Source: Escherichia coli
GTDB lineage: Bacteria > Pseudomonadota > Gammaproteobacteria > Enterobacterales > Enterobacteriaceae
Assembly: GCF_048403405.1 (NCBI RefSeq)
Contig: NZ_CP183129.1
DNA length: 64,000 nucleotides
Strand: one strand, 5' to 3'
In this document: piece after piece, positions 4,812 through 22,843 of the stretch
How the letters are laid out: every line of letters starts with the position of its first letter
Position numbering within the stretch: position 1 is the first letter of the stretch
The notes under the pieces: generated by a model
The model's input: only the letters and a program-made list of their open reading frames with translations
What the model was told of the DNA's origin: nothing
Database searches by the model: none
Program-made: the position numbers and the translations under genes

Positions 4812-7054
<2,243 letters not shown>

Positions 7055-7067
7055 TTCCGGTCTCCTG

Positions 7068-7823
7068 TCAGAACTTATAACCACGATGCAGCGCCACAAC
7101 CCCTGCCGTCAGATTGTAGTAGTCGACACTTTCGAATCCGGCATCTTGCATCATGGCTTTCAGGGTATCCTGATCGGGATGCATACGGATGGATTCTGCC
7201 AGATAACGGTAGCTGTCGGCGTCGTTCGCGACCAATGAGCCAATACGCGGCAGCACATGGAAGGAGTATGCATCATAGGCTTTGCTCAGCGGCTCGATAA
7301 TTGGCTTCGAGAACTCAAGCACCAGCAGGCGGCCGCCGGGTTTCAGCACGCGATACATTGAACGCAGTGCTTTATCTTTGTCGGTGACGTTACGCAGACC
7401 AAACGAAATGGTGATGCAATCAAAGGTGTTATCCGGGAACGGCAGCGCCTCAGCGTTCGCCTGAACATACTCAACGTTGCCAATCACACCGATATTACGC
7501 AGCTTCTCGCGTCCCATTTTGAGCATGGATTCATTGATATCAGCAAGGACCACTTTGCCAGTTTCTCCGACCAGGCGGGAGAATTTCGCTGTCAGGTCGC
7601 CGGTGCCACCAGCCAGATCCAGCACGGTCTGCCCGCGGCGTACGCCGCTGCAATCAATCGTGAATCGCTTCCACAAACGATGAATACCAAATGACATCAA
7701 ATCATTCATGACATCGTATTTTGATGCCACGGAATGGAAAACGTGGGCGACCATATCCGCTTTTTGTTCCTTCGCGACGGTCTGAAAACCAAAGTGCGTC
7801 GTTTCTTGTGACTTATCCACCAT
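7068..7823 (-). CDS. ubiE: Ubiquinone/menaquinone C-methyltransferase UbiE
   Basis: 251-aa SAM-dependent methyltransferase ([10 protein letters not shown] motif), first gene of the ubiE-ubiJ-ubiB cluster. Confidence 0.95.
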
Positions 7824-7917
7824 CTCAATGCCTGCTCATCAAAAAATTGTTCCAGAAGTGTAACAGATTGGGCGTCGATGCCCTAGATTTCTACCCGGCT
7901 TAACTACCCCCAATGGG

Positions 7918-9345
7918 CTAGCGCGACTGCTGATTATATTCATCATCGCGTTGATAAGCTTCATCATTCGGCTGCTCCGGAACCGACCGCAGTCGATACT
8001 CTTCATCCTGGCTCACCGCCTGTTCAGCCAAATCCGGATTAATCTCGCGTTTAATTTCTACCCCTAAACCGCGAAACGCTTCTGCCTGCGCCAGCACATT
8101 TCCGCGACCTGAAGAGAGTTTTTTCATTGCCTGGCGGTAGTTATCCTGCGCTTTGTCGAGACTTTGACCAATCGCGGACATGTCATCGATGAACAAACGC
8201 ATCTTGTCGTACAGCTTGCTGGCACGATCGGCGATTTGCTGGGCGTTGCGGCTTTGATGCTCATAACGCCACAGGTTGGCGATAGTGCGCAGCGCCACCA
8301 GCAGCGTAGTCGGGCTAACCAGCATGATATTGTTTTTCAACGCTTCGGTGATCAGCTCCGGCTGGCGGTCAAGCGCCAGTAAAAAAGCGGGTTCAACGGG
8401 AATAAACATCAGCACGTAATCCAGGGTTCGCAGCCCCGGCAGCTGTTGATAATCTTTGCGTCCCAGCAAACGGATATGGTTACGCACCGACGCGATATGT
8501 TCCTGTAGCGCGCTTTCGCGGGTGTAGTCATCTTCGGCGTTGAAATAGCGTTCATAGGCGACCAGCGTCATTTTGGCGTCGATCACCACATCTTTTCCCT
8601 GCGGCAACCGCACGATGACATCCGGCTGCATCCGCGAGCGGGCGTCATTTTCGATGCTGACCTGGGTTTCATATTCATACCCTTCACGCAGACCGGAAGC
8701 CTCCAGCACCCGCGTCAATACTACCTCGCCCCAGTTGCCCTGGGTTTTATTGTCGCCTTTCAGCGCGCGCGTCAGGTTGATCGCTTCCTGGGCCATTTGC
8801 GCGTTGAGCTGCTGGAGATTGCGAATTTCGTGGGTCAGGGTATGGCGTTCTTGTGCTTCTTTACCAAAGCTGTCCTGAACCTGACGGCGGAAACCGTCCA
8901 GTTGTTCACGTAGCGGCGACAACAGGCTGTTCAGACTCTGACGGTTTTGCTCATCAACCCGGCGATTGCTGTGCTCAAAAATACGGTTGGCGAGGTTTTC
9001 AAACTGCTCACTGAGGCGCTGCTCGCTGTTAATCATCTGGCGAATTTTATCGTCAGCATGTTGCTGTGCGGCTTCCATCCGCGTGGTTACTTCACGCAGA
9101 TCGGCCTCCAGAGAGGTGTTAATACTTTGCAGGCTGCGCACTTCGTTATTGAGTAACTCGCACTCAGCGCGCCAGTGCTCGCTTTGGGTAATTTGTTGTT
9201 TTGCCGCGCTTAACTCCGCGACCATCTCTTCACGTTCAGCTAATTGCTCGGCTTTTTGCTGCGCATGTTGATAACTGGCAAACAGCCAGCCAATTGCCAC
9301 ACCCACCAACGCAATAACTGCGTAAACCATGATTGAGAAATCCAC
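7918..9345 (-). CDS. rmuC: DNA recombination protein RmuC
   Basis: 475-aa ORF with N-terminal TM helix and long coiled-coil region; located between udp and ubiE. Confidence 0.9.
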   Translation of the reverse strand: MDFSIMVYAVIALVGVAIGWLFASYQHAQQKAEQLAEREEMVAELSAAKQQITQSEHWRAECELLNNEVRSLQSINTSLEADLREVTTRMEAAQQHADDKIRQMINSEQRLSEQFENLANRIFEHSNRRVDEQNRQSLNSLLSPLREQLDGFRRQVQDSFGKEAQERHTLTHEIRNLQQLNAQMAQEAINLTRALKGDNKTQGNWGEVVLTRVLEASGLREGYEYETQVSIENDARSRMQPDVIVRLPQGKDVVIDAKMTLVAYERYFNAEDDYTRESALQEHIASVRNHIRLLGRKDYQQLPGLRTLDYVLMFIPVEPAFLLALDRQPELITEALKNNIMLVSPTTLLVALRTIANLWRYEHQSRNAQQIADRASKLYDKMRLFIDDMSAIGQSLDKAQDNYRQAMKKLSSGRGNVLAQAEAFRGLGVEIKREINPDLAEQAVSQDEEYRLRSVPEQPNDEAYQRDDEYNQQSR

Positions 9346-9436
9346 AACGCCTCCTGACGCAACAACTTACCCGCACAAAATAGAATTGTGCTGTACAAAC
9401 GTCCAGTTGGAAAGGCATTTCCTGCGAGGCGCTACG

Positions 9437-9469
9437 CAAAAATACAAAAGGCCGAACGCGTCGGCCTTC
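9437..9469 (-). terminator. Rho-independent terminator downstream of udp
   Basis: On the minus strand: GGCCGACGCGTTCGGCC hairpin followed by TTTTGTATTTTT, about 20 nt after the udp stop. Confidence 0.6.
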
Positions 9470-9485
9470 AGACAGGAGAAGAGGA

Positions 9486-10247
9486 TTACAGCAGACGACG
9501 CGCCGCTTCCACCACGATTTTCACCGCTTGGCTTTCAGTTTGTTTCATCGTCTCAGCATTCGGGATCTCTTGCTGGGTGCGGTTAACGATAACACCCGCT
9601 ACCATACCGGCACGTAGGCCCTGACTTGCACACATGGTCAGCAGGGTTGCAGATTCCATTTCATAGTTCATTACGCCCATCGCCTGCCACTCTTCCATAG
9701 AACCTTTAAAGTGACGAACTACGCGACCAGAGTAAGTATCGTAACGTTCCTGACCTGGGTAGAAGGTATCAGAAGAAGCCGTCACGCCAACGTGAGTCGT
9801 CGCGCCGATGGATTTCGCAGCCTCAACCAGCGCAGTCGTACATTCGAAATCAGCGACAGCCGGGAATTCCAGCGGTGCGAAGTGCAGGCTCGCGCCATCC
9901 AGACGAACAGACGCCGTGGTAACCAGGACATCACCCACATTAATATGCGGCTGAATAGCGCCCGTTGTACCGATACGCAGGAAGGTGCGAATGCCCAGCT
10001 GTGCCAGCTCTTCAACAGCAATAGAGGTAGACGGGCCGCCGATACCGGTAGAGCAGACGATAACAGGTTTACCATCCAGCTCTGCACGCCAGGTGGTGAA
10101 TTCGCGGTGAGATGCCAGCTTAACCGGCTTATCCATCAGCGCGGCGATCTTTTCCACACGATCCGGGTCGCCAGGGACGATGGCAAGCGTAGCCCCTTGT
10201 AAATCGTTTTTAGTGAGGCCGAGATGAAAAACATCAGACTTGGACAT
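9486..10247 (-). CDS. udp: Uridine phosphorylase
   Basis: ORF open to 10253; canonical 253-aa Udp begins [19 protein letters not shown]. Confidence 0.95.
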
Positions 10248-10508
10248 ATACAACTCCTCTGTGAATCGGTTTAGTCAGAAGAAGCAAAAAGACACTTTAC
10301 CGAAGGGTTTAACATTTTTTCGTGATACTCATCACCATGACGCAAATGCGTTGCATAAATTTACCCACCAAAAGTGATGCAAATCACATAAATCACTCTT
10401 CATTCTGCAGGACTGCATAAAAGATGAGCCGATTCAGGCAATGTGATTTGTTGCATGCTGACTATAGTTAACATTGCGCAACATTTTTATAAGGGTACGG
10501 AGAATACC

Positions 10509-11318
10509 ATGGCAACAACACAACAATCTGGATTTGCACCTGCTGCATCGCCTCTAGCTTCGACCATCGTTCAGACCCTGGACGACGCGATTGTGGCGGG
10601 CTTCACCTCTATCCCTTCACAAGGGGATAACATGCCTGCTTACCATGCCAGACCAAAGCAAAGCGATGGCCCACTGCCAGTGGTCATTGTAGTGCAGGAA
10701 ATTTTTGGCGTGCATGAACATATTCGCGACATTTGTCGCCGTCTGGCGCTGGAGGGGTATCTGGCTATCGCACCTGAACTTTACTTCCGCGAAGGCGATC
10801 CGAATGATTTTGCCGATATCCCCACGTTGCTTAGCGGTCTGGTAGCAAAAGTGCCTGACTCGCAGGTGCTGGCCGATCTCGATCATGTCGCCAGTTGGGC
10901 TTCCCGCAACGGCGGCGATGTTCATCGTTTAATGATCACCGGATTCTGCTGGGGTGGACGTATCACCTGGCTGTATGCCGCGCATAATCCACAGCTAAAA
11001 GCCGCAGTGGCGTGGTACGGCAAACTGACGGGCGATAAGTCGCTGAATTCACCGAAACAACCTGTTGATATCGCAACCGATCTTAACGCGCCGGTTCTCG
11101 GCTTATATGGCGGCCAGGATAACAGCATTTCGCAAGAGAGCGTGGAAACGATGCGCCAGGCGCTGCGGGCAGCAAACGCGAAAGCAGAAATTATCGTGTA
11201 CCCGGATGCAGGGCATGCGTTCAACGCCGATTATCGTCCGAGCTATCATGCCGAGTCTGCGAAAGACGGCTGGCAGCGAATGTTGGAATGGTTTACACAG
11301 TATGGTGTTAAAAAGTAA
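10509..11318 (+). CDS. ysgA: Dienelactone hydrolase family protein (YsgA-like)
   Basis: ORF open from 10443; start placed at MATTQQSGFAPAAS, which is preceded by a GGAGA SD. Alpha/beta-hydrolase features (GFCWGG nucleophile elbow). Confidence 0.85.
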   Translation: MATTQQSGFAPAASPLASTIVQTLDDAIVAGFTSIPSQGDNMPAYHARPKQSDGPLPVVIVVQEIFGVHEHIRDICRRLALEGYLAIAPELYFREGDPNDFADIPTLLSGLVAKVPDSQVLADLDHVASWASRNGGDVHRLMITGFCWGGRITWLYAAHNPQLKAAVAWYGKLTGDKSLNSPKQPVDIATDLNAPVLGLYGGQDNSISQESVETMRQALRAANAKAEIIVYPDAGHAFNADYRPSYHAESAKDGWQRMLEWFTQYGVKK

Positions 11319-11574
11319 CGCCATAGTCGCTAAATCTGATGATTAAGCTCACACAATTTCAACGATTTTTTTAATCTCAAAACCATACAGCATCAAAAAA
11401 TTTGTTGCTGTATGCCACTCTTTGACTCCCTTCACATTCGTCATCACACCACCTGCTGAATGCAAAAATTTCGTTGCTGTGCGGCAAACTTTTTTCCTGT
11501 TTTGTGCCGCTTTTCTCCTGAATACTCGTTCTCAGAACAACTGGATCGTTTAAACATCAGACAGGAGATTTACC

Positions 11575-12243
11575 ATGACGCAATCCATTTTTCAGGCTCA
11601 ACCCTTTGAATTACCTTTTGATCCGCGCACAACTGCACTGGTCATGATCGACATGCAGCGTGACTTTGTCGAAGCAGGGGGCTTCGGTGAGGCACTGGGC
11701 AATGATGTTTCACTGGTACGCACGGCTATCGCACCATGTACAGAGGTGCTGGCAGCCGCACGTCAAAAAGGAATTATGGTTATTCATACTCGTGAAGGCC
11801 ATCGTGCAGACTTAAGCGACTGCCCGCCAGCCAAACTGACGCGCGGCGGAAAAACCTTTATTGGTGAACCAGGACCGATGGGACGCATTCTGGTCAGAGG
11901 TGAAGCAGGTCATGACATCATTCCTGAACTGTACCCGGTGGCAGGCGAACCGGTGATTGATAAGCCTGGCAAAGGCGCGTTTTATCAAACCGACTTACAT
12001 CTGATTTTGCAAAACCACGGTATCAAGACGCTGATAGTTTGTGGTGTAACAACCGAAGTTTGCGTAACCACCACCGTGCGCGAAGCAAATGATCGTGGCT
12101 ATGAATGCATTATCCCGGAAGATTGTGTCGGCTCCTATTTCCCGGAATTCCAGAAATACGCCCTCGAGATGATCAAAGCACAAGGTGCCATTTTCGGTTG
12201 GGTTACTGATTCCAAAGCCATTATTGCAGGTCTGGAAGGCTAA
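11575..12243 (+). CDS. Isochorismatase-family cysteine hydrolase (RutB / N-carbamoylsarcosine amidase / biuret hydrolase-like amidase)
   Basis: 222-aa ORF with the isochorismatase-fold signature: Asp in VMIDMQRDF near the N-terminus and catalytic Cys in CGVTTEVCV. AGGAGA SD upstream. First gene of accessory operon A. Confidence 0.8.
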   Translation: MTQSIFQAQPFELPFDPRTTALVMIDMQRDFVEAGGFGEALGNDVSLVRTAIAPCTEVLAAARQKGIMVIHTREGHRADLSDCPPAKLTRGGKTFIGEPGPMGRILVRGEAGHDIIPELYPVAGEPVIDKPGKGAFYQTDLHLILQNHGIKTLIVCGVTTEVCVTTTVREANDRGYECIIPEDCVGSYFPEFQKYALEMIKAQGAIFGWVTDSKAIIAGLEG

Positions 12244-12248
12244 CGCCG

Positions 12249-13109
12249 ATGGCACAGATTACGCTTTGCGCATCGTCGTTGGGATATCTTTTCCCGCAGA
12301 ATGAAACGCAAGATTTACGTCTGCATAGCGCTTTTAAACATGCGGTAAATCTGTATTCAGAAGCGGGAACATTCATCACTCTGTTGTGTGCGCAAACGTA
12401 TCTGAATCTCCCTGATGCTGCCAGAGTCTGGCTACCTGAATGTTGGGACTGGCGAAGAGAGATTGCCCATTCCGATCCCGTTCAGTTAACCCCAGGCTTA
12501 CTGCAGACACCTCGCTTTTGTGTGGCTCTCGATAACGCAACGCTCTGGCAGCCGTCATTTGTGGGAGGAAGGCTGACACTTGAGGCGTTCCCTTTGGTTT
12601 TCCAGCACTACCCAACGATGGCATCGCAACGGCTTTTATTTTGTCTGGAGCATAACGTTCAAAGCACATTGCACCTGCCGGATAGTCTCACGCACCAGGG
12701 ATTAGCGATTATGGAACATCCAGATGCGCTGGAACGCCAGGTGCCACAACTGATCGGCTTTGGTAAAGGCTTAACGCCCGATGGAGATGACTATTTGTTG
12801 GGCTATCTGGCAGCACTCTGGTTATGGCAACTCCCTGCACCACTTGCCGATCATCAATACCGGTTGCAGCAGGCAATTGATCAACATGCGCACAACACCA
12901 CGGATATCAGTCGTCATTATCTGGAGCGTGCGCTTCAGGGACATTTTTCAGAACCGATTTGCCAGTTACTCGCACAACTGGTTGGGAGCGCATCGGCAAT
13001 GACAATCGCATCCTGTGCAGAACAGGTCATGCAATTTGGCGCAACGTCAGGAGTAGATTGCCTTGCAGGAATGCTGCATGGCTTTCGAACCCTGAACACC
13101 ATGAATTGA
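12249..13109 (+). CDS. DUF2877-family protein (YlbF/YahE/AllH-like subunit of an oxamate-carbamoyltransferase-type complex)
   Basis: 286-aa ORF starting 6 nt after the previous stop; Gly-rich motifs GKGLTPDGDDYLLGY and GATSGVD resemble the DUF2877 family as I recall it. Position matches the yahE-yahF-yahG-yahI order. Confidence 0.65.
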   Translation: MAQITLCASSLGYLFPQNETQDLRLHSAFKHAVNLYSEAGTFITLLCAQTYLNLPDAARVWLPECWDWRREIAHSDPVQLTPGLLQTPRFCVALDNATLWQPSFVGGRLTLEAFPLVFQHYPTMASQRLLFCLEHNVQSTLHLPDSLTHQGLAIMEHPDALERQVPQLIGFGKGLTPDGDDYLLGYLAALWLWQLPAPLADHQYRLQQAIDQHAHNTTDISRHYLERALQGHFSEPICQLLAQLVGSASAMTIASCAEQVMQFGATSGVDCLAGMLHGFRTLNTMN

Positions 13110-13203
13110 TTTCAACCTTTTCTCCTGTAGCTCATTTATGGCGCTACACGGGGATGCTTTGCCCGAATTTTACTATCGGGCGGAATGAAACAGGCGTAAC
13201 AGC

Positions 13204-14763
13204 ATGAAAGTTAAATATAAAGTTTTCAGTAATCTTTATCAGGACTCAGTTTCTCTGATGCAGATTTCCGCGCAAATCAGCAAGTTGCCCGGTATTCAAC
13301 AGGCCTCGGTCGTCATGGGAACACCCAATAATCTCGAACAATTGCGCGATGCGGGTCTGGGTAACGAAATCAACGCCAGTCCCAATGATTTAGTGATTGC
13401 AGTCATGGGTGAAGAAGATATTTGCAATGAAGCACTGGCACTGGCCCAGCAACGTCTGACCAGCAAACCCGATGATGAAACGGATAGTGGCATTAAAACA
13501 CCGGAAAATGTCAGCCTGGACATGGCACTGGAAGCCGAACCCGAAGCCAACCTGGCACTCATTTCTGTACCGGGAGACTACGCCGCCGCCGAAGCAATTA
13601 AAGCGTTAAACCTCGGAATGAACGTGATGATGTTCAGCGATAACGTCAGTATCGCGCAGGAAAAATCCATCAAAATACTTGCCCGAGAACGTCAGCGCAT
13701 CGTAATGGGACCTGACTGTGGAACCGCCATTGTTAACGGCATTCCGTTAGGCTTCGCTAATGTGGTGAAACGCGGAGCAATTGGTGTTATTGGCGCGTCA
13801 GGCACCGGGCTACAGGAAGTGACTTGCCGAATCGACCAGCTCGGAGCGGGTATTTCTCAGGCGCTGGGAACAGGCGGGCATGATCTCAGTGAAGAGATTG
13901 GTGGAATATCGATGCTCTTCGCTTTAGATGCGCTGGCGCAAGACGATGAAACTCGCGTAATTGTGCTGATTTCAAAACCGCCTTCACCGATCGTTGCCCG
14001 GACTATTCTGGAGCGTGCCGAGGCTTGTGGAAAACCCGTGGTGGTGAATTTCCTCGGTGCGAATCCGCATGATCTGGCACGTCCCAATATCACTGCCGCC
14101 ACCACACTTGCCAGCGCCGCCGACATCGCTGTGGCGTTACTGAATGCTCAGCCACTTCCGGCTGTCGAGACCGAGATTTCCTGCGCCGATCTCACAATGT
14201 TACAAAACGCCTGTCAGCGCCTGCCAGCCCATCGCCAGGCGATACGCGGTGTTTTCGCCGGAGGAACCTTCTGCTACGAAGCGCAACTTATCTGCCAGCA
14301 AAAGGGATTCCGCGCCGCCTCCAATACGCCAGTTGCGAGTAATCGTACTCTGGCAAATATCTGGCAAAGCGAAGATCACACGCTGATCGATATGGGCGAC
14401 GATGATTTCACCCGTGGCAAACCGCATCCAATGATCGACCCGACTCTGCGCAATCAACGTCTGCTCAACGAACTCAACGACTCACACACTGCCGTCGTGT
14501 TATTCGACCTGGTACTTGGTTATGGCGCTTCCGCTACACCTGCCAGCGAATTACTGGACCAACTTTCACACATCGACATGAATAACGCACCGTTGCTGAT
14601 TGCGCACGTTTGCGGAACGGAAGCTGATCCGCAAATACGCAGTCAGCAGATAAGCGCACTACAAAATGCGGGCATCATCATTGCCAGCAGCAATGCACAG
14701 GCGGCGCTATGGGCCAGCGTCGTTGCGCAGACTCAGTTGCAGAAAAAGGGGCTAAACGCATGA
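13204..14763 (+). CDS. FdrA-like protein (CoA-binding / succinyl-CoA-synthetase-like fold; AllF/YahF family)
   Basis: 519-aa ORF sharing long motifs with E. coli FdrA as I recall it (NLALISVPGDYAA, MMFSDNVS, MGPDCGTAIVNGIPLGFANVV, GVIGASGTGLQEV, GRPHPMIDPTLRNQ). Confidence 0.8.
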   Translation: MKVKYKVFSNLYQDSVSLMQISAQISKLPGIQQASVVMGTPNNLEQLRDAGLGNEINASPNDLVIAVMGEEDICNEALALAQQRLTSKPDDETDSGIKTPENVSLDMALEAEPEANLALISVPGDYAAAEAIKALNLGMNVMMFSDNVSIAQEKSIKILARERQRIVMGPDCGTAIVNGIPLGFANVVKRGAIGVIGASGTGLQEVTCRIDQLGAGISQALGTGGHDLSEEIGGISMLFALDALAQDDETRVIVLISKPPSPIVARTILERAEACGKPVVVNFLGANPHDLARPNITAATTLASAADIAVALLNAQPLPAVETEISCADLTMLQNACQRLPAHRQAIRGVFAGGTFCYEAQLICQQKGFRAASNTPVASNRTLANIWQSEDHTLIDMGDDDFTRGKPHPMIDPTLRNQRLLNELNDSHTAVVLFDLVLGYGASATPASELLDQLSHIDMNNAPLLIAHVCGTEADPQIRSQQISALQNAGIIIASSNAQAALWASVVAQTQLQKKGLNA

Positions 14764-16184
14764 ATACCTTATTTAATCAGCCTTTGAAGGTTGTGAACGC
14801 GGGACTACACAGTTTTGCTGACAATATTCAACATGCCGGGGGAAGCGCAATTGCACTCAACTGGCAGCCACCAGCACAAGGCGATATTGACGCTGGATTG
14901 GATCTGGCATCGTTGCTACGTCATCCACTGGTAGAAAATGCCAACCAAATCGCCATGACACGTTATCTCGAAGCACAGCCCGTGCTGGTAGATGTCATGC
15001 TCGCTAAAGAGGCCATTCCAGCAATGGCTGAACAAAAACGTATTTTGCACTCTGGCCCGCCGATTGCCTGGGAAGAGATGTGTGGTCCGGTAAAAGGGGC
15101 GATTATTGGTGCCATGCTGTACGAAGGTTGGGCCACCAGCCAGCAAGACGCTGAAAACCAGATAAACGCAGGCGAAATCGACCTTGCCCCTTGTCATCAT
15201 TATCACGCGGTTGGCCCAATGGCTGGCATCATCAGCCCGTCGATGCCGTTATGGGTGGTAGAAAACAAAACCAACGGCCACCGTACTTTTAGCAATTTCA
15301 ATGAAGGTCTGGGTAAGGTTCTCCGTTTTGGCGCCAATAACGATGAAGTTCTCAATCGTCTGGCCTGGATGCGCGATGAACTGGCGCCGGCAATGAAAGC
15401 AGCAATCGCACAACACGGCGAGCTGGAACTCAAGCCATTAATGGCGCAGGCGCTGCATATGGGGGATGAAGTTCATAACCGCAATGCTGCCGCTACCGGT
15501 TTGCTGATTAAGCGCCTGCTCCCGGCATTGCTGGCCTGCTCTCTTCCACAGGAACATATCCAGCGCGTCGTGGCATTTATCACCGGTAACGATCACTTCT
15601 TCCTCAATCTGTCGATGGCTGCCTGTAAAGCAATGATGGATGCCGCCGCCAATGTACCGTTCAGTTCAATGGTTACGGTGATGGCGCGTAACGGGGTGAA
15701 TTTTGGTATTCGGCTTTCCGGTACTGGCGATCGCTGGTTCCAGGCTCCTGCCAATGCCGTTGAAGGTCTGTTCTTCCCCGGATTTGGCGTTGACGACGCT
15801 GCTGCTGACCTGGGTGATAGCGCAATTACTGAAACCGCAGGTGTGGGTGGCTTCGCGATGGCGTCGTCTCCGGCGATCGTCAAATTTGTGGGAGGCACCC
15901 CTGCCGATGCCACCAATAACAGCCGTCGGATGCAAGCCATCACCCTCGGCGGTAACCCCGCATTTACACTTCCAGCCCTCAATTTTGCCCCCACCGCAGC
16001 AGGGATTGATGCGCGTAAAGTGACCGATCGCGGCATTTTACCGGTCATCAATACGGGTATCGCCCACAAACAAGCGGGGGTCGGGCAAATTGGTGCCGGG
16101 ATCACCACTGCGCCGATGGCCTGTTTTGTCGCCGCTGTACGTGCACTGGCGGAGATCGTCGCAAAGGAGAACCATCATGGTTAA
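14760..16184 (+). CDS. DUF1116-family protein (YlbE/YahG/AllG-like)
   Basis: ORF open from 14709; I place the start at the ATG at 14760, which overlaps the FdrA-like stop (ATGA), giving MNTLFNQPLKVVNAG. Same gene order as yahF-yahG and fdrA-ylbE. Confidence 0.75.
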   Translation: MNTLFNQPLKVVNAGLHSFADNIQHAGGSAIALNWQPPAQGDIDAGLDLASLLRHPLVENANQIAMTRYLEAQPVLVDVMLAKEAIPAMAEQKRILHSGPPIAWEEMCGPVKGAIIGAMLYEGWATSQQDAENQINAGEIDLAPCHHYHAVGPMAGIISPSMPLWVVENKTNGHRTFSNFNEGLGKVLRFGANNDEVLNRLAWMRDELAPAMKAAIAQHGELELKPLMAQALHMGDEVHNRNAAATGLLIKRLLPALLACSLPQEHIQRVVAFITGNDHFFLNLSMAACKAMMDAAANVPFSSMVTVMARNGVNFGIRLSGTGDRWFQAPANAVEGLFFPGFGVDDAAADLGDSAITETAGVGGFAMASSPAIVKFVGGTPADATNNSRRMQAITLGGNPAFTLPALNFAPTAAGIDARKVTDRGILPVINTGIAHKQAGVGQIGAGITTAPMACFVAAVRALAEIVAKENHHG

Positions 16185-17133
16185 GCCACTGGCTGTTGTC
16201 GCGGTTGGCGGCAATGCGCTCATTCAGGACGAGCAACGCAATAGTATTCCCGATCAATATGTTGCAGTGATGGAAAGCGTGCAGCATATCGTTGATATGG
16301 TTGAAGCCGGATGGGACCTGGTGCTAACCCACGGTAATGGCCCGCAGGTGGGCTTTATTCTGCGCCGCTCTGAACTCGCCAGTAACGAAGTTTCTCCGGT
16401 TCCACTTGATTACGCCGTGGGTGATACACAAGGTGCAATTGGCTACATGTTCCAGAAAGCGCTGCATTACGAATTGGCTCGCCGTGGCATAAACAAACCG
16501 GTAATTGCCCTGGTGACACAAACGCGAGTCAGCCCACATGACGATGCTTTCGCCAACCCCAGTAAACCGATTGGCGCGTTTCTCGATGAAGCAACGGCCC
16601 AACAACGCCAACAACAACTCGGCTGGACGCTGATGGAGGACGCCGGGCGTGGTTGGCGGCGTACAGTTCCCTCTCCTGCACCACTGGAAATTATTGAGCA
16701 CGACACCATCGCTCACCTGGTGCGCCAGGGATATCTGGTTATTGCCTGCGGCGGCGGCGGTATTCCGGTGGTGCGAGACGGGCAACAACTGAAAGGTGTA
16801 GAAGCCGTGATCGATAAAGATCTGGCCTCCGCGCTGCTCGCCAGTCAGTTAGGCGCAGATCTGCTGGTGATCCCCACCGGTGTAGAAAAAGTGGCGATTA
16901 ACTTTGGTACACCACAACAACAGTGGCTCGACGCTATCAGCGTTGCCGAAGCGCAAACGCTGTTGCGGGAAGGTCAGTTTGGTGTCGGCAGTATGCAACC
17001 CAAAGTGGAAGCCATTGTTGATTTCATCAATGCCAGCCAGCAACAAGGCAAACAGGCCAGCGGCCTGATTACTTCACCGCAAACCATAAAAGCAGCCCTG
17101 GCGCATCAGAGCGGTACATGGATAACCCTTTAA
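16177..17133 (+). CDS. Carbamate kinase (ArcC/YahI/AllK family)
   Basis: ORF open from 16090; start placed at MVKPLAVVAVGGNALI (the classic carbamate kinase N-terminus) with an AAGGAGA SD 7 nt upstream; 8-bp overlap with the preceding gene. Confidence 0.85.
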   Translation: MVKPLAVVAVGGNALIQDEQRNSIPDQYVAVMESVQHIVDMVEAGWDLVLTHGNGPQVGFILRRSELASNEVSPVPLDYAVGDTQGAIGYMFQKALHYELARRGINKPVIALVTQTRVSPHDDAFANPSKPIGAFLDEATAQQRQQQLGWTLMEDAGRGWRRTVPSPAPLEIIEHDTIAHLVRQGYLVIACGGGGIPVVRDGQQLKGVEAVIDKDLASALLASQLGADLLVIPTGVEKVAINFGTPQQQWLDAISVAEAQTLLREGQFGVGSMQPKVEAIVDFINASQQQGKQASGLITSPQTIKAALAHQSGTWITL

Positions 17134-17149
17134 ATCTCTGGAGAACACA

Positions 17150-17539
17150 ATGACTACAACGCTTTTAGCCGTTAACGGAACGCTGATGCGCGGCCTGGAA
17201 CTCAACCCAAATATGAAAAAAGCGGGCGGTATTTTTGTCCGTGAAGACCGAACTGACGCCCATTACCGGTTGTGGAGTATTAACGATCGCCATCCGGGAA
17301 TGATTCGCGTGAATGAAGGAGGAACACACGTCGACGTAGAAATTTGGCAATTACCGCTGGCCAGTTTTGCCGCTCTGTTAATGAGCGAACCCGCTGGGCT
17401 GGCAATTGGCAAAATCAAACTTGCCGATGGTAGCGAAGTGCTGGGCGTACTGGCAGAAAACTGGCTGACCGAAGGCCAACGGGAAATTACAGAACTGGGC
17501 GGCTGGCGCAAATACACCGGGCATTTTCATACTGTGTAA
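17150..17539 (+). CDS. Small protein resembling the C-terminal domain of allophanate hydrolase (GGCT-like fold), tentative
   Basis: 129-aa ORF. The segment YRLWSINDRHPGMIRVNEGGTHVDVEIWQLPLASFAALLMSEPAGLAIGKIKLADGSEVLGVLAENW...LGGWRKY resembles the allophanate hydrolase C-terminal domain pattern as I remember it. Assignment from memory only. Confidence 0.5.
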   Translation: MTTTLLAVNGTLMRGLELNPNMKKAGGIFVREDRTDAHYRLWSINDRHPGMIRVNEGGTHVDVEIWQLPLASFAALLMSEPAGLAIGKIKLADGSEVLGVLAENWLTEGQREITELGGWRKYTGHFHTV

Positions 17540-17564
17540 CGCGCATTTATAAAGGGAACATACT

Positions 17565-18788
17565 ATGCGTAAAAAAGAAGAGAATCTGAATACGGCATCA
17601 GGATTGCGTATTGCCATGATTTTGCTGGGTATTGCCGTCACACCTGTGCTGTTGTCATCCTCAAGCCTCGGCAATCAACTTTCCAGCGGCAGTTTAATTA
17701 GCGTCGTATTGTTAGGCGGCGTCATTCTGACCTTACTTTCAGCCATCACCATTAGCGTGGGAGAAAAAGCCCGCCTGCCAACGTATGGCATTGTGAAATA
17801 TTCGTTTGGCGAAAAAGGGGCCATCGCCATTAACATTTTGATGGCGATAAGTCTGTTCGGCTGGATTGCCGTTACCGCCAATATGTTTGGTCATTCGGTA
17901 CATGACTTACTGGCTCAACATGGACTGGAAGTTCCACTGGCACTGTTAGTGGCGGCTGGCTGTGTCATTTTTGTCGCCTCTACGGCATTTGGCTTTGCCG
18001 TTCTGGGAAAAATTGCCCAGGTTGCCGTGCCGGTTATCGCGCTGGTGCTGTGTTACATCCTCTATGTGGCAACCCATACCGAAGTGGCAGTACCAGCGGC
18101 GATTGTGGAGATGAATACAGGTGTCGCCGTTTCCACCGTTGTTGGCACCATTATTGTGCTGGTTGCCACACTGCCTGATTTCGGTAGTTTTGTGCATAAC
18201 CGCAAACATGCACTGATTGCCGCAGGCGTGACGTTTCTGGTTGCCTACCCTCTGCTCTACTGGGCGGGTGCAACGCCGAGCGCCATTAGTGGTCAGGGAT
18301 CTTTACTGGGTGCGATGGCGGTATTCGGTGCGGTTCTGCCTGCGGCGCTGTTGTTGATTTTCGCCTGCGTCACCGGTAACGCGGGCAATATGTTCCAGGG
18401 CACGCTGGTGGTTTCCACACTGCTTACCCGCTTTCCCAAATGGCAGATTACCGTGGCGCTGGGTATCCTTTCCGCCATCGTAGGCAGTATGGATATTATG
18501 GCGTGGTTTATTCCGTTTCTGCTGTTCCTGGGTATCGCCACGCCACCCGTTGCCGGAATTTATATCGCTGACTTTTTCCTTTATCGCCGTAATGGCTATC
18601 AAGAGTCAGTGTTAGCCCAGGAGTCACAGATTAAAGTGCTGACATTCGCAGCATGGATCATAGGCGCAGCGGTTGGCTTTATGACCGTAAAAGGCTTATT
18701 CACCCTGACGACGATCCCTTCGGTAGACTCGATTCTGGTGGCATGTATCGCGTATGCGATTCTCAGTCGGGCAAGTCAACACCGCTAA
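17565..18788 (+). CDS. NCS1-family nucleobase/hydantoin-type permease (CodB-like)
   Basis: 407-aa polytopic membrane protein (about 12 hydrophobic segments) with length and organisation like the cytosine permease CodB. Confidence 0.75.
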   Translation: MRKKEENLNTASGLRIAMILLGIAVTPVLLSSSSLGNQLSSGSLISVVLLGGVILTLLSAITISVGEKARLPTYGIVKYSFGEKGAIAINILMAISLFGWIAVTANMFGHSVHDLLAQHGLEVPLALLVAAGCVIFVASTAFGFAVLGKIAQVAVPVIALVLCYILYVATHTEVAVPAAIVEMNTGVAVSTVVGTIIVLVATLPDFGSFVHNRKHALIAAGVTFLVAYPLLYWAGATPSAISGQGSLLGAMAVFGAVLPAALLLIFACVTGNAGNMFQGTLVVSTLLTRFPKWQITVALGILSAIVGSMDIMAWFIPFLLFLGIATPPVAGIYIADFFLYRRNGYQESVLAQESQIKVLTFAAWIIGAAVGFMTVKGLFTLTTIPSVDSILVACIAYAILSRASQHR

Positions 18789-18865
18789 TTCCTGGGTATA
18801 CTCAGGCAATGATTACGGCTGAATCTGGAGAGATTCAGCCACTTTACCACTGACCAGGGAGCCTT

Positions 18866-19771
18866 ATGTTCATCTCAGACGAAACGCTTCGTGTTATTCA
18901 TCTGGTCGCCAGACACCAGAGCATTACCATCGCAGCCGAGCAGTTAAATAAAGTCCCTTCCGCCATCAGTTACACCATCAAGAAAGCGGAAGAGAGCCTG
19001 GGCGTTGAACTGTTCATTCGTAAGGGACGCTATATTGAATTATCGCCAGCGGGAAGTTACTTCATCGAACATAGCAAAACTATTCTTGGCGACCTGGAAG
19101 CATTAAAGCGCAACACAGTGCTGATTCACGATGGTATTGAGCGTGAACTGACAATTGCGGTAAACAATATTATTCCTGGTAATTTGCTGGTGGCATTTAT
19201 TCGAGATTTTGAACGGCAATTCACATCAACAACACTGACGGTAGATCTTGAGGTATACAACGGCTGCTGGGATGCGCTGTACAGTAAGCGTGCTGATCTG
19301 GTCTACGGTGCTCCTCATGCAGTACCAAGTAGTGAAGGCATCATTAGCGAACCGGTCGGACAAATGGAATGGGATTTTGTCGTCAGCCCACTCCACCCAC
19401 TGGCAGCGAAGCGGCATCCATTAGAAAACAGTGAATTGCGTCATTATCCAGCGGTTTGTATCCGCGATACCTCCGTTAACTTCCCCCCGATGCAAGCCTG
19501 GTTGTTGGAAGGACAAAAACCCATTTTTGTTCCTGACTTCGCTACGGCAATCGCCTTAATAGAACAAAACGTCGGTATTGGTTATATTCCACATCATCTG
19601 GCATTGCCGTTATTGAACAGCGGTAAATTGCTTAAAAAGCCAATGCGCGAACATAAACACGCCACCAAGTTATTTCTTGCCGCTCGTTCCGATGGTATGG
19701 GCAAAGCCTGTCAGTGGTGCATAGAATATTTAAGAAACCCGCAATTAATGACACGATTTGTATTTAATTGA
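18866..19771 (+). CDS. LysR-family transcriptional regulator
   Basis: 301-aa ORF with N-terminal HTH (ITIAAEQLNKVPSAISYTIKKAEESLGVELFIRKGR) and C-terminal LysR substrate-binding domain. Confidence 0.85.
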   Translation: MFISDETLRVIHLVARHQSITIAAEQLNKVPSAISYTIKKAEESLGVELFIRKGRYIELSPAGSYFIEHSKTILGDLEALKRNTVLIHDGIERELTIAVNNIIPGNLLVAFIRDFERQFTSTTLTVDLEVYNGCWDALYSKRADLVYGAPHAVPSSEGIISEPVGQMEWDFVVSPLHPLAAKRHPLENSELRHYPAVCIRDTSVNFPPMQAWLLEGQKPIFVPDFATAIALIEQNVGIGYIPHHLALPLLNSGKLLKKPMREHKHATKLFLAARSDGMGKACQWCIEYLRNPQLMTRFVFN

Positions 19772-19899
19772 CAATACAATGATAAAAATATAAGTCTTGC
19801 TTTAATTAGAGCGCCCGTTTAAATTATTTTTGTGCAGTTGACGTAACTCATGAAAATTAACCGGTCTGTTAATCATTACGTTCACTGCACACCTTCATT

Positions 19900-19940
19900 T
19901 TTTCACACCTATCCACGCCTGAAAACTATGTTATAATCAG
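19900..19940 (+). promoter_or_regulatory. Putative sigma70 promoter with extended -10 (TGTTATAAT) for the RpiR-family gene
   Basis: TGTTATAAT at about 19929-19937 in an AT-rich intergenic region, about 30 nt upstream of the ATG at 19971. No convincing -35. Confidence 0.3.
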
Positions 19941-19970
19941 CACTTTCTGTCAGAATGAAATTTACTAATT

Positions 19971-20816
19971 ATGAATAACATAACCGTAAAAAGTCTGATT
20001 CAAAGCAATTACCCTACACTGCATCAGGCGGAAAAAAAGGTCGCCGACTATATTCTTAGCCACGCACATGAAGTCGTGAACTATAGTGTCACTGAACTAT
20101 CAGAAAAAAGCCATGCCAGTGAAGCGACTATCGTGCGCACCTGTAAGAAATTAGGTTATCAGGGTTATTACCATTTAAAAATTGCATTAGCAAAAGAAGT
20201 CATTAATCCTGACAATAGCTATCCTGATAATACCGATTTTACCGATATAACGTCGCTGGCCACATTTTTATTAAAAAAACAGGCCGAAGATTTAATACAA
20301 TCAACGCAATTTTTTAATGCCGAAGTGCTTGAGTCCATTCTCAAACTACTTGCTAATTGCGATACTATTTTCTTTTTTGCTGCCGGAAATTCAAACCCTC
20401 TGGCCGTTTATGGTGCTTATAAATTCAGCCAACTCGGATTAAAAACCGTTGTTCACGTCAGCCCGGAAATGCAAATTAATGCGGCATATTCTATGGGGAA
20501 ACGCGACCTGGCGATTGGTATTTCTAACTCTGGCAGCACCAACTTAATGGTCGATATCTTTAAAGTGGTGAAAGAGCGCGGTGCCAAATCCGTTTGTATC
20601 ACTAACTATATTAAATCTCCGTTATCAAAACTCTCCACCCATCAACTCAATACCGCGGTCAGCGATAAAATCTTCTTTGAAGCCTTCGACTCCACTCGCG
20701 TTCCGGCAATGGGCGTTATTGATATGCTGGTGCTGTTGTTTATGTATAAAAACAAGGCGCATTACGAGAAATACCGCACCCGTGAAGAGTTTCTCGGCTC
20801 CCGTTTCAAGGGGTAA
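19971..20816 (+). CDS. RpiR/MurR-family transcriptional regulator (HTH + SIS domain)
   Basis: 281-aa ORF with N-terminal HTH_6-type region (SVTELSEKSHASEATIVRTCKKLGYQGYYHLK) and C-terminal SIS domain. Confidence 0.85.
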   Translation: MNNITVKSLIQSNYPTLHQAEKKVADYILSHAHEVVNYSVTELSEKSHASEATIVRTCKKLGYQGYYHLKIALAKEVINPDNSYPDNTDFTDITSLATFLLKKQAEDLIQSTQFFNAEVLESILKLLANCDTIFFFAAGNSNPLAVYGAYKFSQLGLKTVVHVSPEMQINAAYSMGKRDLAIGISNSGSTNLMVDIFKVVKERGAKSVCITNYIKSPLSKLSTHQLNTAVSDKIFFEAFDSTRVPAMGVIDMLVLLFMYKNKAHYEKYRTREEFLGSRFKG

Positions 20817-20840
20817 AAGGTCATCCTTTCACCCCTTGTG
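20810..20840. terminator. Hairpin between the convergent RpiR-family and transketolase genes (possible bidirectional terminator)
   Basis: GGGGTAAAAGG-TCAT-CCTTTCACCCC inverted repeat overlapping the rpiR-like stop codon, followed by TTGTG; 30-bp gap between convergent stops. Confidence 0.4.
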
Positions 20841-20845
20841 CAGGT

Positions 20846-22843
20846 TTAGCTATTCAGTAGCTCACGCGCCTGCGCCAGGACATTTTCCGGCGTAAAACCA
20901 AAGTGTTTGAACAACACATTCGCCGGAGCAGACTCACCAAAGCTCGTCATCCCAATGACTTTACCATCCAGACCGACGTAGCGTTCCCAGAATCCGGCGA
21001 TGCTGGCTTCTACCGCCAGACGTTTGCGTACAGCTTTTGGCAATACCGATTCTTTGTACGCCGCATCCTGATTATCGAAACGCTCGGTACACGGCATGGA
21101 AACTACGCGAACTTTACGCCCTTCTTCCGTTAACGCTTTTGCGGCGCTGACCACTAACTCAATCTCTGAACCCGCAGAAATGAGGATCATCTCAGGCTGA
21201 CCGTCACAATCACTCAGTACATAACCACCACGCGCAATCTCTGCCAACTGTGCAGCGGTGCGCGGCTGTTGCGCCAGCGGTTGGCGCGTTAATACCAACG
21301 ACGTTGGGCCATCTTTGCGCTCAATCGCCTGTTGCCAGGCCACCGCCACTTCCACCTGATCGCAACCGCGCCAGGTTTCCATATTCGGCGTCAGACGCAG
21401 CGACGCCAGTTGCTCAACGGGCTGATGTGTCGGGCCGTCTTCGCCCAGGCCGATGGTATCGTGGGTATAAACAAACACCGAGCGGATCTTCATCAGCGCC
21501 GCCATGCGCAGTGCATTACGCGCATATTCCATAAACATCAGGAAAGTACCGCCGTAAGGGATAAACCCACCATGCAGCGCAAGACCGTTCATGATGGCCG
21601 ACATACCAAATTCACGCACGCCATAGGAGATGTAATTCCCCGCCGGATTTTCCCCGGTGAAATCAACCGATTTCTGATGGCGAGTCAGGTTAGAGGGCGA
21701 CAAGTCCGCCGAGCCGCCCATCAGTTCCGGCAGCATATCAGCGAAGTGATTGAGGCATTTCTGGCTGACCTGACGGGTTGCCAGCGCCGCCGGATGGGAT
21801 TGCAGATCGTGCACATATTTCTGCATATTCTCGGCCCAGCCAGCAGGCAAATCACCCTTCATGCGACGAGTAAACTCCGCCGCCAGTTCCGGCCACTGCT
21901 TCGCGTAGTCAGCAAACAGTGCATCCCATTCCTGTTGAACCTGCGCGCCTTTCTCGGTCGCATCCCATTCGGCATAAATTTCACCAGGAATTTCGAAAGG
22001 GGCATACGGCCATTGCAGACGTTCACGCACCAGCGCCACTTCATCTGCACCCAGCGCCGAGCCGTGGCAATCGTGGCTGTTGGCTTTATTTGGTGAACCA
22101 AAACCGATAATCGTTTTGCAGCACAGCAGACTGGGCTTATCCGTGACGCTTTTCGCTTCACGCACCGCAGCATCTACCGCTTCTGGATCGTGACCATCAA
22201 CGCCTTCAATGACATGCCAGCCGTAGGCACGAAAACGGGCAGCCGTATCTTCAGCGAACCAGCCTTCTACGTGACCATCGATCGAAATACCGTTATCGTC
22301 CCAGATAGCAATCAGATTGCCGAGCTTCAGCGTTCCTGCAAGACCACAGGCCTCGTGGGAGATCCCTTCCATCAGGCAGCCATCACCCAAAAATAGCCAT
22401 GTGTGATGATCAACAATATTAAAGCCCGGTTTGTTAAATTCTGCCGCCAGCGCCTTCTCCGCAATCGCCATCCCCACCGCATTAGCTACGCCCTGCCCCA
22501 ACGGGCCGGTGGTGGTTTCAACACCCGGCGTATAACCATATTCTGGATGACCCGGCGTGCGGGAGTGGAGCTGACGAAAGTCGCGAATATCATCCATCGA
22601 CAGGTCGTAGCCTGTAAGATGCAGCAAAGCGTAAATCAACATGGAGCCGTGACCGTTCGACTGAACATAGCGGTCGCGGTTAAACCACTGCGGATTTTTT
22701 GGGTTATGACGCAGGTGACGACGCCAGACCACTTCGGCAATATCCGCCATCCCCATCGGCGCGCCCGGATGACCGGAGTTCGCTTTCTGGATCGCATCAA
22801 CACTTAACATTCGGATGGCATTAGCCAGTAATTGTGAATTCAT
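20846..22843 (-). CDS. tkt: Transketolase paralog (third tkt copy; possibly the ExPEC-associated 'tkt1')
   Basis: 665-aa ORF collinear with E. coli TktA/TktB over its whole length ([81 protein letters not shown]) but clearly divergent from both, and located in an accessory island. Confidence 0.9.

Follow-up and report, generated by a model that had tools for sequence, protein, structure and literature searches.

An eight-gene cassette of Escherichia coli with a triuret hydrolase-type amidase and AllFGH-type subunits as a candidate operon for oligo-ureide use

Here we analyzed a 64,000-nucleotide stretch of an Escherichia coli genome (assembly GCF_048403405.1, contig NZ_CP183129.1; the whole stretch is called the window below), which carries a compact cassette encoding an amidase, three subunits of a carbamoyltransferase-like enzyme, a carbamate kinase, and accessory proteins. 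Positions 11575-18788 of the plus strand hold seven co-directional open reading frames, all annotated as intact in RefSeq, which span 11575-12243, 12249-13109, 13204-14763, 14709/14760-16184, 16090/16177-17133, 17150-17539, and 17565-18788. With the RefSeq starts, the distances between them are 5, 94, -4, -8, 16, and 25 bp, so that the seven genes are tightly packed. The genes for the FdrA subunit, the AllG-like subunit, and carbamate kinase overlap one another: the AllG-like gene starts 4 nucleotides into the end of the FdrA gene, and the carbamate kinase and AllG-like genes share 8 nucleotides. A first-pass annotation, made from the sequence alone, had proposed a seven-gene operon. The operon stands, but the unit was incomplete: an eighth co-directional gene, for a LysR-type regulator (18866-19771), lies 77 bp past the permease gene and belongs to the unit as well, since it has stayed with the cassette in a plasmid copy and in most of the other species. 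Hidden Markov model (HMM) searches recovered all of the family assignments made earlier (isochorismatase, DUF2877, FdrA, DUF1116, carbamate kinase, AH_C, and NCS1). The features of the locus are the following.

11575..12243, plus strand: TrtA-type cysteine hydrolase of the isochorismatase fold, 222 aa (Pfam PF00857, 7e-48)
12249..13109, plus strand: AllH/DUF2877-type subunit of a three-subunit carbamoyltransferase, 286 aa (Pfam PF11392, 5e-27)
13204..14763, plus strand: FdrA/AllF-type subunit, a relative of succinyl-CoA synthetase alpha, 519 aa (NCBIfam NF004760, 497 bits, cutoff 433)
14760..16184, plus strand: AllG/DUF1116-type subunit, 474 aa, RefSeq start (Pfam PF06545, 9e-99)
16177..17133, plus strand: carbamate kinase, 318 aa (TIGR00746 arcC, 365.3 bits, cutoff 358.25; PRK12352, 375 bits, cutoff 266)
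17150..17539, plus strand: stand-alone AH_C-fold protein, 129 aa, proposed N-carboxy-ureide decarboxylase (Pfam PF21986, 8e-42)
17565..18788, plus strand: NCS1 (CodB-like) permease, 407 aa, proposed substrate importer (NCBIfam cytosine permease, 146 bits, cutoff 326)
18866..19771, plus strand: LysR-type regulator, PunR/AllS-like, 301 aa (NCBIfam PunR, 286 bits, cutoff 345; AllS, 214 bits)
11384..11414, no strand: palindrome CATACAGCATCAAA-aaa-TTTGTTGCTGTATG, candidate site of the LysR activator (repeat search)

The region 11400-18900 of the window is 100% identical to several chromosomes of human E. coli isolates, and 1559 of the 5426 complete E. coli genomes (29%) contain the cassette. To survey other species, one genome per species was scanned with the AH_C protein, which yielded 80 loci; the eight window proteins were mapped onto these, and the result was combined with three separate look-ups. 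The same genes in the same order, with unrelated flanks, were found in about 42 other proteobacterial species. These belong to the Enterobacterales (Edwardsiella, Citrobacter, Lelliottia, Buttiauxella, Limnobaculum, Budvicia, Rahnella, and Serratia), Burkholderiales, Neisseriales, Xanthomonadales, Moraxellales, Vibrionales, Aeromonadales, and Rhodobacterales, and include Caballeronia, Paraburkholderia, Silvimonas, Dyella, Psychrobacter (where insertion sequences flank the cassette), Motilimonas, Photobacterium, Aeromonas, and Palleronia. Across these roughly 42 species, no further enzyme gene is conserved with the cassette, and the encoded proteins must therefore carry out the whole pathway. 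Nor do the allantoin genes allB, allC, or allD lie beside it in any of them. Furthermore, a copy of exactly the segment from the amidase to the LysR gene, about 94% identical, is present on 82 conjugative plasmid records, four of them from Klebsiella and most of them from chickens or chicken meat (NC_007675.1 included). The plasmid that we inspected, pDETEC66 (L089, NZ_CP116108.1; copy at 6015-14193), is of type IncFIA/FIB/FIC and carries iron-uptake and bacteriocin-immunity genes. The cassette is thus a self-contained, horizontally mobile eight-gene unit.

The type of the amidase is the strongest single result of this analysis. Among solved structures, its best matches are Herbaspirillum sp. 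BH-1 6XIX (270 bits) and 6XJ4 (266 bits), ahead of biuret hydrolases (234-237 bits) and RutB (105 bits). The 6XIX structure is that of the triuret hydrolase TrtA (PMC7948467), to which the window amidase is 58% identical, compared with 52% identity to the biuret hydrolase BiuH of Rhizobium. TrtA has a catalytic triad of D24, K129, and C162 with a V157-T158 cis-peptide, and binds triuret through E72, K132, and Q202; at six further positions, the TrtA consensus (F35, N41, A134, E160, Y187, and I205) differs from that of BiuH (Y, Y, S, D, T, and V). When these six TrtA residues were exchanged for the BiuH consensus, five of the six substitutions impaired triuret hydrolysis, A134S being harmless (PMC7948467). 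In the alignment, D26, K130, C163, and V158-T159 of the window protein correspond to the triad and the cis-peptide, and the protein agrees with TrtA at all fifteen named positions, including the three triuret contacts and the six discriminating residues. For a broader comparison, 64 homologs from 85 related loci were aligned together with the window amidase and reference sequences of TrtA and BiuH, and fourteen catalytic, substrate-binding, and second-shell signature positions were scored. Two residue patterns cover 63 of the 65 scored amidases. The TrtA pattern, DFFNEKKATECYQI, is present in the window amidase (14 of 14 residues), in every scored cassette amidase (34/34), and in 17 proteins of other phyla, and the BiuH pattern, DFYYEKKSTDCTQV, in 11 proteins, each of which is 72-78% identical to Rhizobium BiuH.

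Equivalog models gave a concordant result. The window amidase scores 279.8 bits against the BiuH model NF050097, below its cutoff of 370, compared with 416.8 bits for the genuine BiuH of a Verrucomicrobia locus, and 112 bits against the RutB model (cutoff 378); according to the RefSeq annotation, the cassette contains no rut genes. An assignment as BiuH is ruled out by this score and by the signature of the other type, and an assignment as RutB, which would have linked the cassette to pyrimidines, by the 105-112 bits obtained against 270 for TrtA and 280 for the BiuH model. By the published discriminators, the amidase is thus of the TrtA type, and neither BiuH, RutB, nor a generic amidase. Because it is of this type at all 14 diagnostic residues, its likely substrate is linear triuret rather than an N-heterocycle. 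The first-pass annotation had envisaged import of a compound such as an N-heterocycle, followed by amide hydrolysis, carbamoyl transfer, and ATP formation, and had named no specific substrate. Its general scheme is still the best reading, but the ring compound gives way to a specific candidate, the linear ureide triuret.

The next four genes bring together the families of AllF (FdrA), AllG (DUF1116), and AllH (DUF2877) beside a carbamate kinase, which is the composition of the AllFGH enzyme. AllFGH has been shown to form carbamoyl phosphate and oxamate from oxalurate and phosphate (PMC11326118), and AllK then forms ATP from carbamoyl phosphate (PMC11326118, PMC9843812). The proposal that the cassette holds a third paralogous set, next to AllFGH-AllK and YahEFG-YahI of strain K-12, was borne out. 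The AllH-like subunit shares 26% identity with YahE and likewise with AllH, the FdrA subunit (which carries the Pfam domains Ligase_CoA and CoA_binding) is 42% identical to YahF and 41% to AllF, the AllG-like subunit is 46% identical to YahG and 49% to AllG, and the carbamate kinase, which scores above the TIGR00746 equivalog cutoff, is 48% identical to YahI and 39% to AllK. Identities of 26-49%, a separate AllG clade, and the lack of all genes nearby in any species rule out that the cluster is simply allFGH-allK. The same holds for the yah cluster, given identities of 26-48%, other accessory genes, and again a separate AllG clade.

Comparison of the gene clusters shows both shared and distinct features. 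AllFGH and AllK (PMC11326118, PMC9843812) have the same three subunit families and an adjacent, co-transcribed carbamate kinase, and the expected chemistry is likewise the conversion of an acyl-urea and phosphate to carbamoyl phosphate and then ATP. In contrast, the order is H-F-G-K in the cassette and F-G-H-K in the all cluster, and the cassette lies outside the allantoin regulon and couples the module to a TrtA-type amidase, an AH_C protein, and an NCS1 permease, so that its substrate is probably not oxalurate. In the K-12 cluster yahD-yahE-yahF-yahG-yahI-yahJ, the core order of yahE-F-G-I (DUF2877, FdrA-like, DUF1116, carbamate kinase) is that of the cassette; this cluster too has a LysR gene nearby and pairs the module with a hydrolase. 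However, it contains an ankyrin protein and the Amidohydro_1-type YahJ, has neither an isochorismatase-type amidase nor an AH_C protein, and its AllG protein falls into a separate yah-type clade with 100% bootstrap.

The AllH-like subunit was found in 36 of about 42 cassette loci with an HMM built from cassette orthologs. Five cassettes (L022, L031, L035, L040, and L043) gave no AllH/DUF2877 match even with this model. In two loci of Aeromonas (L046 and L052), AllH is encoded upstream on the opposite strand. The subunit may therefore be either dispensable, degraded, or too diverged for detection in some lineages. When the full representative library was queried with the AllG-like protein, 765 clusters were obtained at E ≤ 1e-30, with FdrA-AllG fusions among them. 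Many AllG-family representatives (P0123, P0127, P0129, P0130, P0136, and others) are about 1000 aa long, with the AllG part as the C-terminal half. These proteins look like FdrA-AllG fusions, which fits both subunits acting as one complex. The GHAG phosphohistidine loop of succinyl-CoA synthetase alpha was not seen as a motif in the FdrA subunit when it was compared with a SucD sequence, a result that is not relied on.

The 129-aa AH_C protein is 98% identical to PDB entry 5C5Z, a deposited structure labeled "Glutamyl-tRNA amidotransferase", and its orthologs are 56-97% identical over 80 genomes from several phyla. It had been likened to the C-domain of allophanate hydrolase (AtzF, or the AH domain of DUR1,2), in which the N and C domains are said to catalyze sequential reactions (PMC5770610). 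This likeness holds for the fold and for a glutamate further downstream, which the stand-alone AH_C proteins share with two crystallized allophanate hydrolases. The protein matches only positions 440-563 of the 563-position allophanate hydrolase model, and its similarity to the C-domains of PDB 4GYR and 4ISS is low (45-51 bits). A motif AVNGTLMRGLxLN is near-invariant in 60 stand-alone AH_C sequences, where two crystallized allophanate hydrolases have AVVGAHL. Among the open reading frames and RefSeq annotations of the cassette, there is no gene for an amidase-signature N-domain, and hence the architecture of allophanate hydrolase is absent. The protein is also not TrtB, the accessory protein of the known triuret pathway: TrtB is AtzH/HpxZ-like.

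The neighborhoods of AH_C genes in other organisms point to a shared context. In the remaining 38 or so AH_C loci, from Verrucomicrobia, Cyanobacteria, and one Caldilineaceae genome, the AH_C gene occurs without AllFGH or carbamate kinase genes. Many of these non-cassette loci have a TrtA-type amidase 1-3 kb from the AH_C gene, often together with a true BiuH, so that AH_C genes adjoin TrtA-type amidases in three phyla (Proteobacteria, Verrucomicrobia, and Cyanobacteria). Other genes found there encode a cupin, a BMP-type ABC transporter, a membrane protein of 530 aa, and urea-transport and urease-accessory functions. In two cyanobacteria (L068:10540-11922, and the same position in L059), an amidohydrolase of the AtzE family directly follows the AH_C gene (750 bits, cutoff 461); the characterized member of this family acts on 1-carboxybiuret. 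In two Chthoniobacter genomes (L085:10363-14004, and L050), the AH_C gene lies beside genes for the UrtBCD urea transporter and for urea carboxylase, the product of which is allophanate. Because it adjoins TrtA-type amidases, an AtzE-family amidase, and urea carboxylase, the stand-alone AH_C protein has, as judged from gene context, a conserved association with enzymes that form or consume N-carboxylated ureides, and its sequence, which lacks the GAH motif, marks it as a distinct subfamily.

Two further families recur at these loci. A polytopic membrane protein of about 500-530 aa is encoded beside TrtA and BiuH genes in Verrucomicrobia (L041:7225-8817 and 16 other loci), twice in L091 (1711-3216 and 3876-5399), and as an extra gene in the Serratia cassette L031. 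It has no match in Pfam, NCBIfam, or PDB, and probably represents a new family of triuret or biuret transporters. In addition, a cupin of 130-150 aa, which resembles the C-terminal domain of the ChrR anti-sigma factor, is encoded directly upstream of AH_C in 23 loci (L041:9556-10008 and 22 others) of Verrucomicrobia and related metagenome-assembled genomes.

The gene contexts of relatives of the AllG-like subunit were looked up in five cases, of which four were usable; the fifth, P0141 (L092), lies on a 1.6-kb contig without neighbors. The nearest AllF/AllG pair outside the cassette (46% and 60% identity; L090:5428-9428) is encoded on a metagenome contig directly after a ring-opening amidohydrolase of the AtzD/TrzD family (TIGR02714, 353 bits; AtzD equivalog, 332 bits, under the cutoff of 360), and in a neighbor-joining tree its AllG protein is the sister of the cassette clade. 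No recognizable AllH or carbamate kinase gene is present on the available stretch of this contig. Cyanuric acid hydrolase yields carboxybiuret, as does TrtA (PMC7948467). A 49% identical AllG relative (L091) is found with a carbamate kinase, two membrane proteins of about 500 aa, and a TrtA-like amidase that is 60% identical and has 12 of the 14 signature residues. The 46% identical relative has yet another gene context. Finally, a 47% identical relative (L094:4930-13768) belongs to a yah-type cluster and groups with YahG at 100% bootstrap. This cluster encodes an ankyrin protein, AllH, AllF, AllG, an NCS1 permease, carbamate kinase, a cytidine/deoxycytidylate-type deaminase, an M20 peptidase, and a PucR regulator, and may help to assign the yahD-J cluster of K-12.

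The permease is clearly homologous to the NCS1 family (PRK11017, 1.7e-42; TIGR00800, 1.9e-16), and its orthologs carry the Pfam domain Transp_cyt_pur. It scores far below both equivalog cutoffs (146 bits, cutoff 326, and 60 bits, cutoff 353), and by this criterion its substrate would not be cytosine. In the Entomohabitans cassette L043, its position is held by the unrelated 530-aa membrane protein described above, which elsewhere accompanies TrtA.

Based on these features, we consider it moderately probable that the eight-gene operon serves to draw nitrogen and, to a minor extent, ATP from triuret (carbonyldiurea, H2N-CO-NH-CO-NH-CO-NH2) or from an oligo-ureide very similar to it. Triuret would be imported by the NCS1 permease. 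The sequence argues strongly that the TrtA-type cysteine hydrolase would then strip one terminal amide as ammonia and leave 1-carboxybiuret, as TrtA converts triuret to carboxybiuret and ammonia (PMC7948467). Carboxybiuret loses its carboxylate without a catalyst (half-life, about 20 min), and TrtB performs the same reaction enzymatically (PMC7948467). The neighborhoods described above suggest that the AH_C protein may do the job that TrtB has in Herbaspirillum and decarboxylate the N-carboxy intermediate, most likely carboxybiuret to biuret and CO2, with allophanate as an alternative substrate. In place of BiuH and allophanate hydrolase, the AllH/AllF/AllG-type enzyme would cleave the terminal carbamoyl group of an acyl-urea (biuret, carboxybiuret, or allophanate) by phosphorolysis, with carbamoyl phosphate and a shortened ureide (for example, urea or carbamate) as the products; the family suggests the chemistry of this step, and the context its substrate. 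Biuret (H2N-CO-NH-CO-NH2), allophanate (H2N-CO-NH-COO-), and carboxybiuret are N-acyl-ureas that differ from oxalurate (H2N-CO-NH-CO-COO-) only distally. Carbamate kinase, by its family function and its score above the equivalog cutoff, would transfer the phosphate of carbamoyl phosphate to ADP to form ATP and carbamate, which decays to ammonia and CO2. The PunR/AllS-like LysR protein would activate the operon.

Proteobacterial and verrucomicrobial loci have in common TrtA and AH_C, and contain either AllFGH and carbamate kinase or BiuH as alternatives. The simplest reading is therefore that a common intermediate is consumed by two alternative modules: biuret released by the AH_C protein may be hydrolyzed by BiuH or phosphorolyzed by the AllFGH-like enzyme to carbamoyl phosphate and urea. 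Two variants can be envisaged. Carboxybiuret might be phosphorolyzed first and the AH_C protein then decarboxylate allophanate, which would leave the net reaction unchanged; alternatively, the enzyme might act twice, on carboxybiuret and then on allophanate, so that all four nitrogens and two ATP would be recovered.

Several points weigh against this pathway. An identity of 58% does not fix the specificity of the amidase, as TrtA and BiuH are 47-48% identical and yet differ 10^4-fold in preference. Activity of the AllFGH family has been measured solely on oxalurate, whereas the pathway would require phosphorolysis of biuret, carboxybiuret, or allophanate. The role of the AH_C protein is derived from its neighborhood, and its family is without the GAH motif of allophanate hydrolase C-domains; in AtzF, moreover, activity does not require the C-terminal domain, which affects oligomerization (PMC3944691). 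The AtzD-family neighbor in L090 could be barbiturase-like, given its AtzD score of 332 against a cutoff of 360, and the sister position of the L090 AllG protein has a bootstrap value of only 65%. Moreover, with urea as an end product, urease-negative E. coli would regain only half of the nitrogen.

A less probable but plausible alternative is that the same chemistry serves another physiological substrate, such as biuret, a carboxybiuret derived from cyanuric acid, longer polyurets, or another N-acylurea formed in the host or the environment, with triuret being a mere in vitro analog. This would accommodate the AllFG relatives beside an AtzD-family enzyme and the TrtA-like variant with 12 of 14 residues in L091, and little is known of how abundant triuret is in nature (PMC7948467). 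Yet all 34 scored cassette amidases carry the exact TrtA signature and not that of BiuH, the cassette contains no ring-opening hydrolase, and TrtA is reported to be ultraspecific, with 10^4-fold lower activity on biuret than on triuret (PMC7948467).

The main alternative in kind, weakened by the present results and rated as still less probable, is a second oxalurate pathway, in which the cassette would encode an isozyme of oxamate carbamoyltransferase, the amidase would hydrolyze oxamate or a related amide and thereby recover the last nitrogen, and the permease would import oxalurate or parabanate. Oxalurate phosphorolysis is the sole activity demonstrated for the family (PMC11326118), oxaluric acid, too, is a product of urate oxidation (PMC5703782), RefSeq names the subunits "AllH family" and "YlbE family", and the regulator is AllS/PunR-like. 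On the other hand, E. coli already has allFGHK, to which the subunits are just 26-49% identical; the amidase equals TrtA at all 14 positions that contact triuret or discriminate for it; the AH_C protein accompanies TrtA in loci without any AllFGH; and allB, allC, and allD are absent from the cassette's surroundings in about 42 species. A module for salvage or degradation of cytosine or uracil, with CodB-like import, RutB-like release of carbamate from a ring-opened ureide, and carbamate kinase, was proposed in PMC12928451 and would agree with the cytosine permease as nearest NCBIfam model of the permease (146 bits) and the RutB match of the amidase (112 bits), but appears very improbable, given that the amidase scores 270 bits with TrtA and 280 with the BiuH model against 105-112 with RutB, that the cassette has no ring-opening enzyme (RutA, dihydropyrimidinase, or barbiturase), and that the permease falls far short of the CodB cutoff of 326 and is swapped in one species for a membrane protein traveling with TrtA and BiuH.

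Returning to triuret use as the favored function, the cassette can be compared with two systems that involve the same amidase family. The triuret pathway of Herbaspirillum sp. BH-1 (TrtA, TrtB, BiuH, and AtzF; PMC7948467) likewise starts with a TrtA-type amidase and includes a small accessory protein. The cassette lacks BiuH, the AtzF amidase domain, and TrtB, and has an AllFGH-type enzyme, carbamate kinase, and AH_C instead. Its route would be phosphorolytic and ATP-yielding rather than purely hydrolytic, and its hosts are enteric or pathogenic rather than plant-associated. In comammox Nitrospira and ammonia-oxidizing archaea, as reported independently, biuH/trtA genes are collocated with allFGHK, so that a ureide amidase adjoins AllFGH-like genes and carbamate kinase, sometimes with codB (PMC12625717). 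That study, from which alone the nitrifier genes are known here, reads the arrangement as two separate pathways side by side, for biuret and for oxalurate, whereas the eight genes of the proteobacterial cassette keep a fixed order and include an AH_C gene and one for an amidase of the TrtA rather than the BiuH type.

A fuller scenario is more tentative, and we regard it as possible rather than probable. It combines a phosphorolytic, ATP-conserving route of oligo-ureide breakdown, an AllFGH-type enzyme acting as biuret/allophanate:phosphate carbamoyltransferase, an AH_C protein acting as N-carboxy-ureide decarboxylase that would be analogous but not homologous to TrtB/AtzH, and an enrichment of the cassette in B2 extraintestinal pathogenic E. 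coli and on poultry IncF plasmids owing to triuret feeding. Triuret forms by peroxynitrite oxidation of urate, and the feeding sites would be inflamed or urate-rich places in the host, such as urine or the avian gut.

Every protein family of the cassette, and the cluster itself, were known before. The island that contains it was described by Li et al. in 2012 as the "tkt1 genomic island" of avian pathogenic E. coli (APEC) O1, carried by 80.6% of B2 uropathogenic and 94.1% of B2 neonatal-meningitis isolates, with its genes labeled only as yahE/F/G-like, carbamate kinase-like, permease, and isochorismatase hydrolase (PMC3349570). A 2026 genome paper lists it as GR29 and suggests, from BLAST alone, nitrogen acquisition through pyrimidine degradation (PMC12928451). 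The novelty claimed in the first-pass annotation therefore stands for a paralog set distinct from allFGHK and yahEFGI, but not for the cluster as such, which had been seen in these two papers, or for the small protein, the structure of which is PDB 5C5Z. Of experimental work on the APEC O1 locus tags, a literature search returned only the 2012 island paper, and no paper in the literature searched was found to link triuret to E. coli or to AllFGH-type enzymes. The placement of the amidase in the TrtA type appears to be new, as does the predicted coupling of triuret/carboxybiuret chemistry to an AllFGH-type carbamoyltransferase and carbamate kinase. The finding, by sequence and gene context, that stand-alone AH_C proteins are partners of TrtA across phyla also appears to be new.

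A specific candidate substrate makes this orphan cluster directly and cheaply testable. Triuret, which arises by oxidation of urate, has been reported from human urine, and extraintestinal pathogenic and avian E. coli carry the cassette very commonly. If the proposed function is true, it would give the newly defined AllFGH enzyme family a second activity, explain why ureide amidase and allFGHK genes are neighbors in nitrifiers, provide a function for structure 5C5Z, and suggest an approach to the unexplained yah cluster of K-12. Triuret metabolism, reported for 1-2% of genomes, mostly from plant-associated bacteria, would then reach enteric pathogens.

The regulator and the leader of the operon were also analyzed. 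The LysR protein is 34% identical to YahB of K-12; its gene adjoins the cassette in most cassette-bearing species and lies inside the plasmid-shared segment. The palindrome at 11384-11414 is located about 170 bp upstream of the amidase gene, and its 14-nucleotide arms are 93% complementary. A 30-nucleotide direct repeat, CAAAAA(A)TTT(C)GTTGCTGT..., occurs with a spacing of 69 bp; its upstream copy lies in the near-perfect palindrome and the second copy at 11463-11492. Neighboring blocks of the leader, such as TCACA, TTTTTTTAAT, and TGAATACTC, are partially conserved in Citrobacter, Buttiauxella, and Edwardsiella (within the Enterobacterales only), and blocks are kept in the plasmid copy, the promoter region of which is homologous but more diverged than the rest of the copy (79% identity). 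The strict palindrome pattern of E. coli was not found in other genera. No strong sigma-70 consensus is present in the 256-bp leader (11319-11574), in which scans for sigma-70 promoters and terminators gave no more sites than shuffled sequence and were uninformative, and no riboswitch or known RNA element was detected, the sole match having E = 0.9. The leader fits an activator-dependent promoter, with the palindrome as a candidate LysR site.

The cassette forms the left half of a 16-kb island between ysgA and metE, which looks composite. Past the LysR gene, with which the cassette ends, the G+C content drops to 0.38-0.44 around 19000-21000, and a second, unrelated module comes next. This module comprises an RpiR regulator (19971-20816) and, on the minus strand, the tkt1 transketolase (20846-22843), a glucose-type IIBC component of the phosphotransferase system (22894-24402), and a 6-phospho-3-hexuloisomerase (about 24444-25001). 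Of the two island modules, only the ureide cassette was found on plasmids and in other genera.

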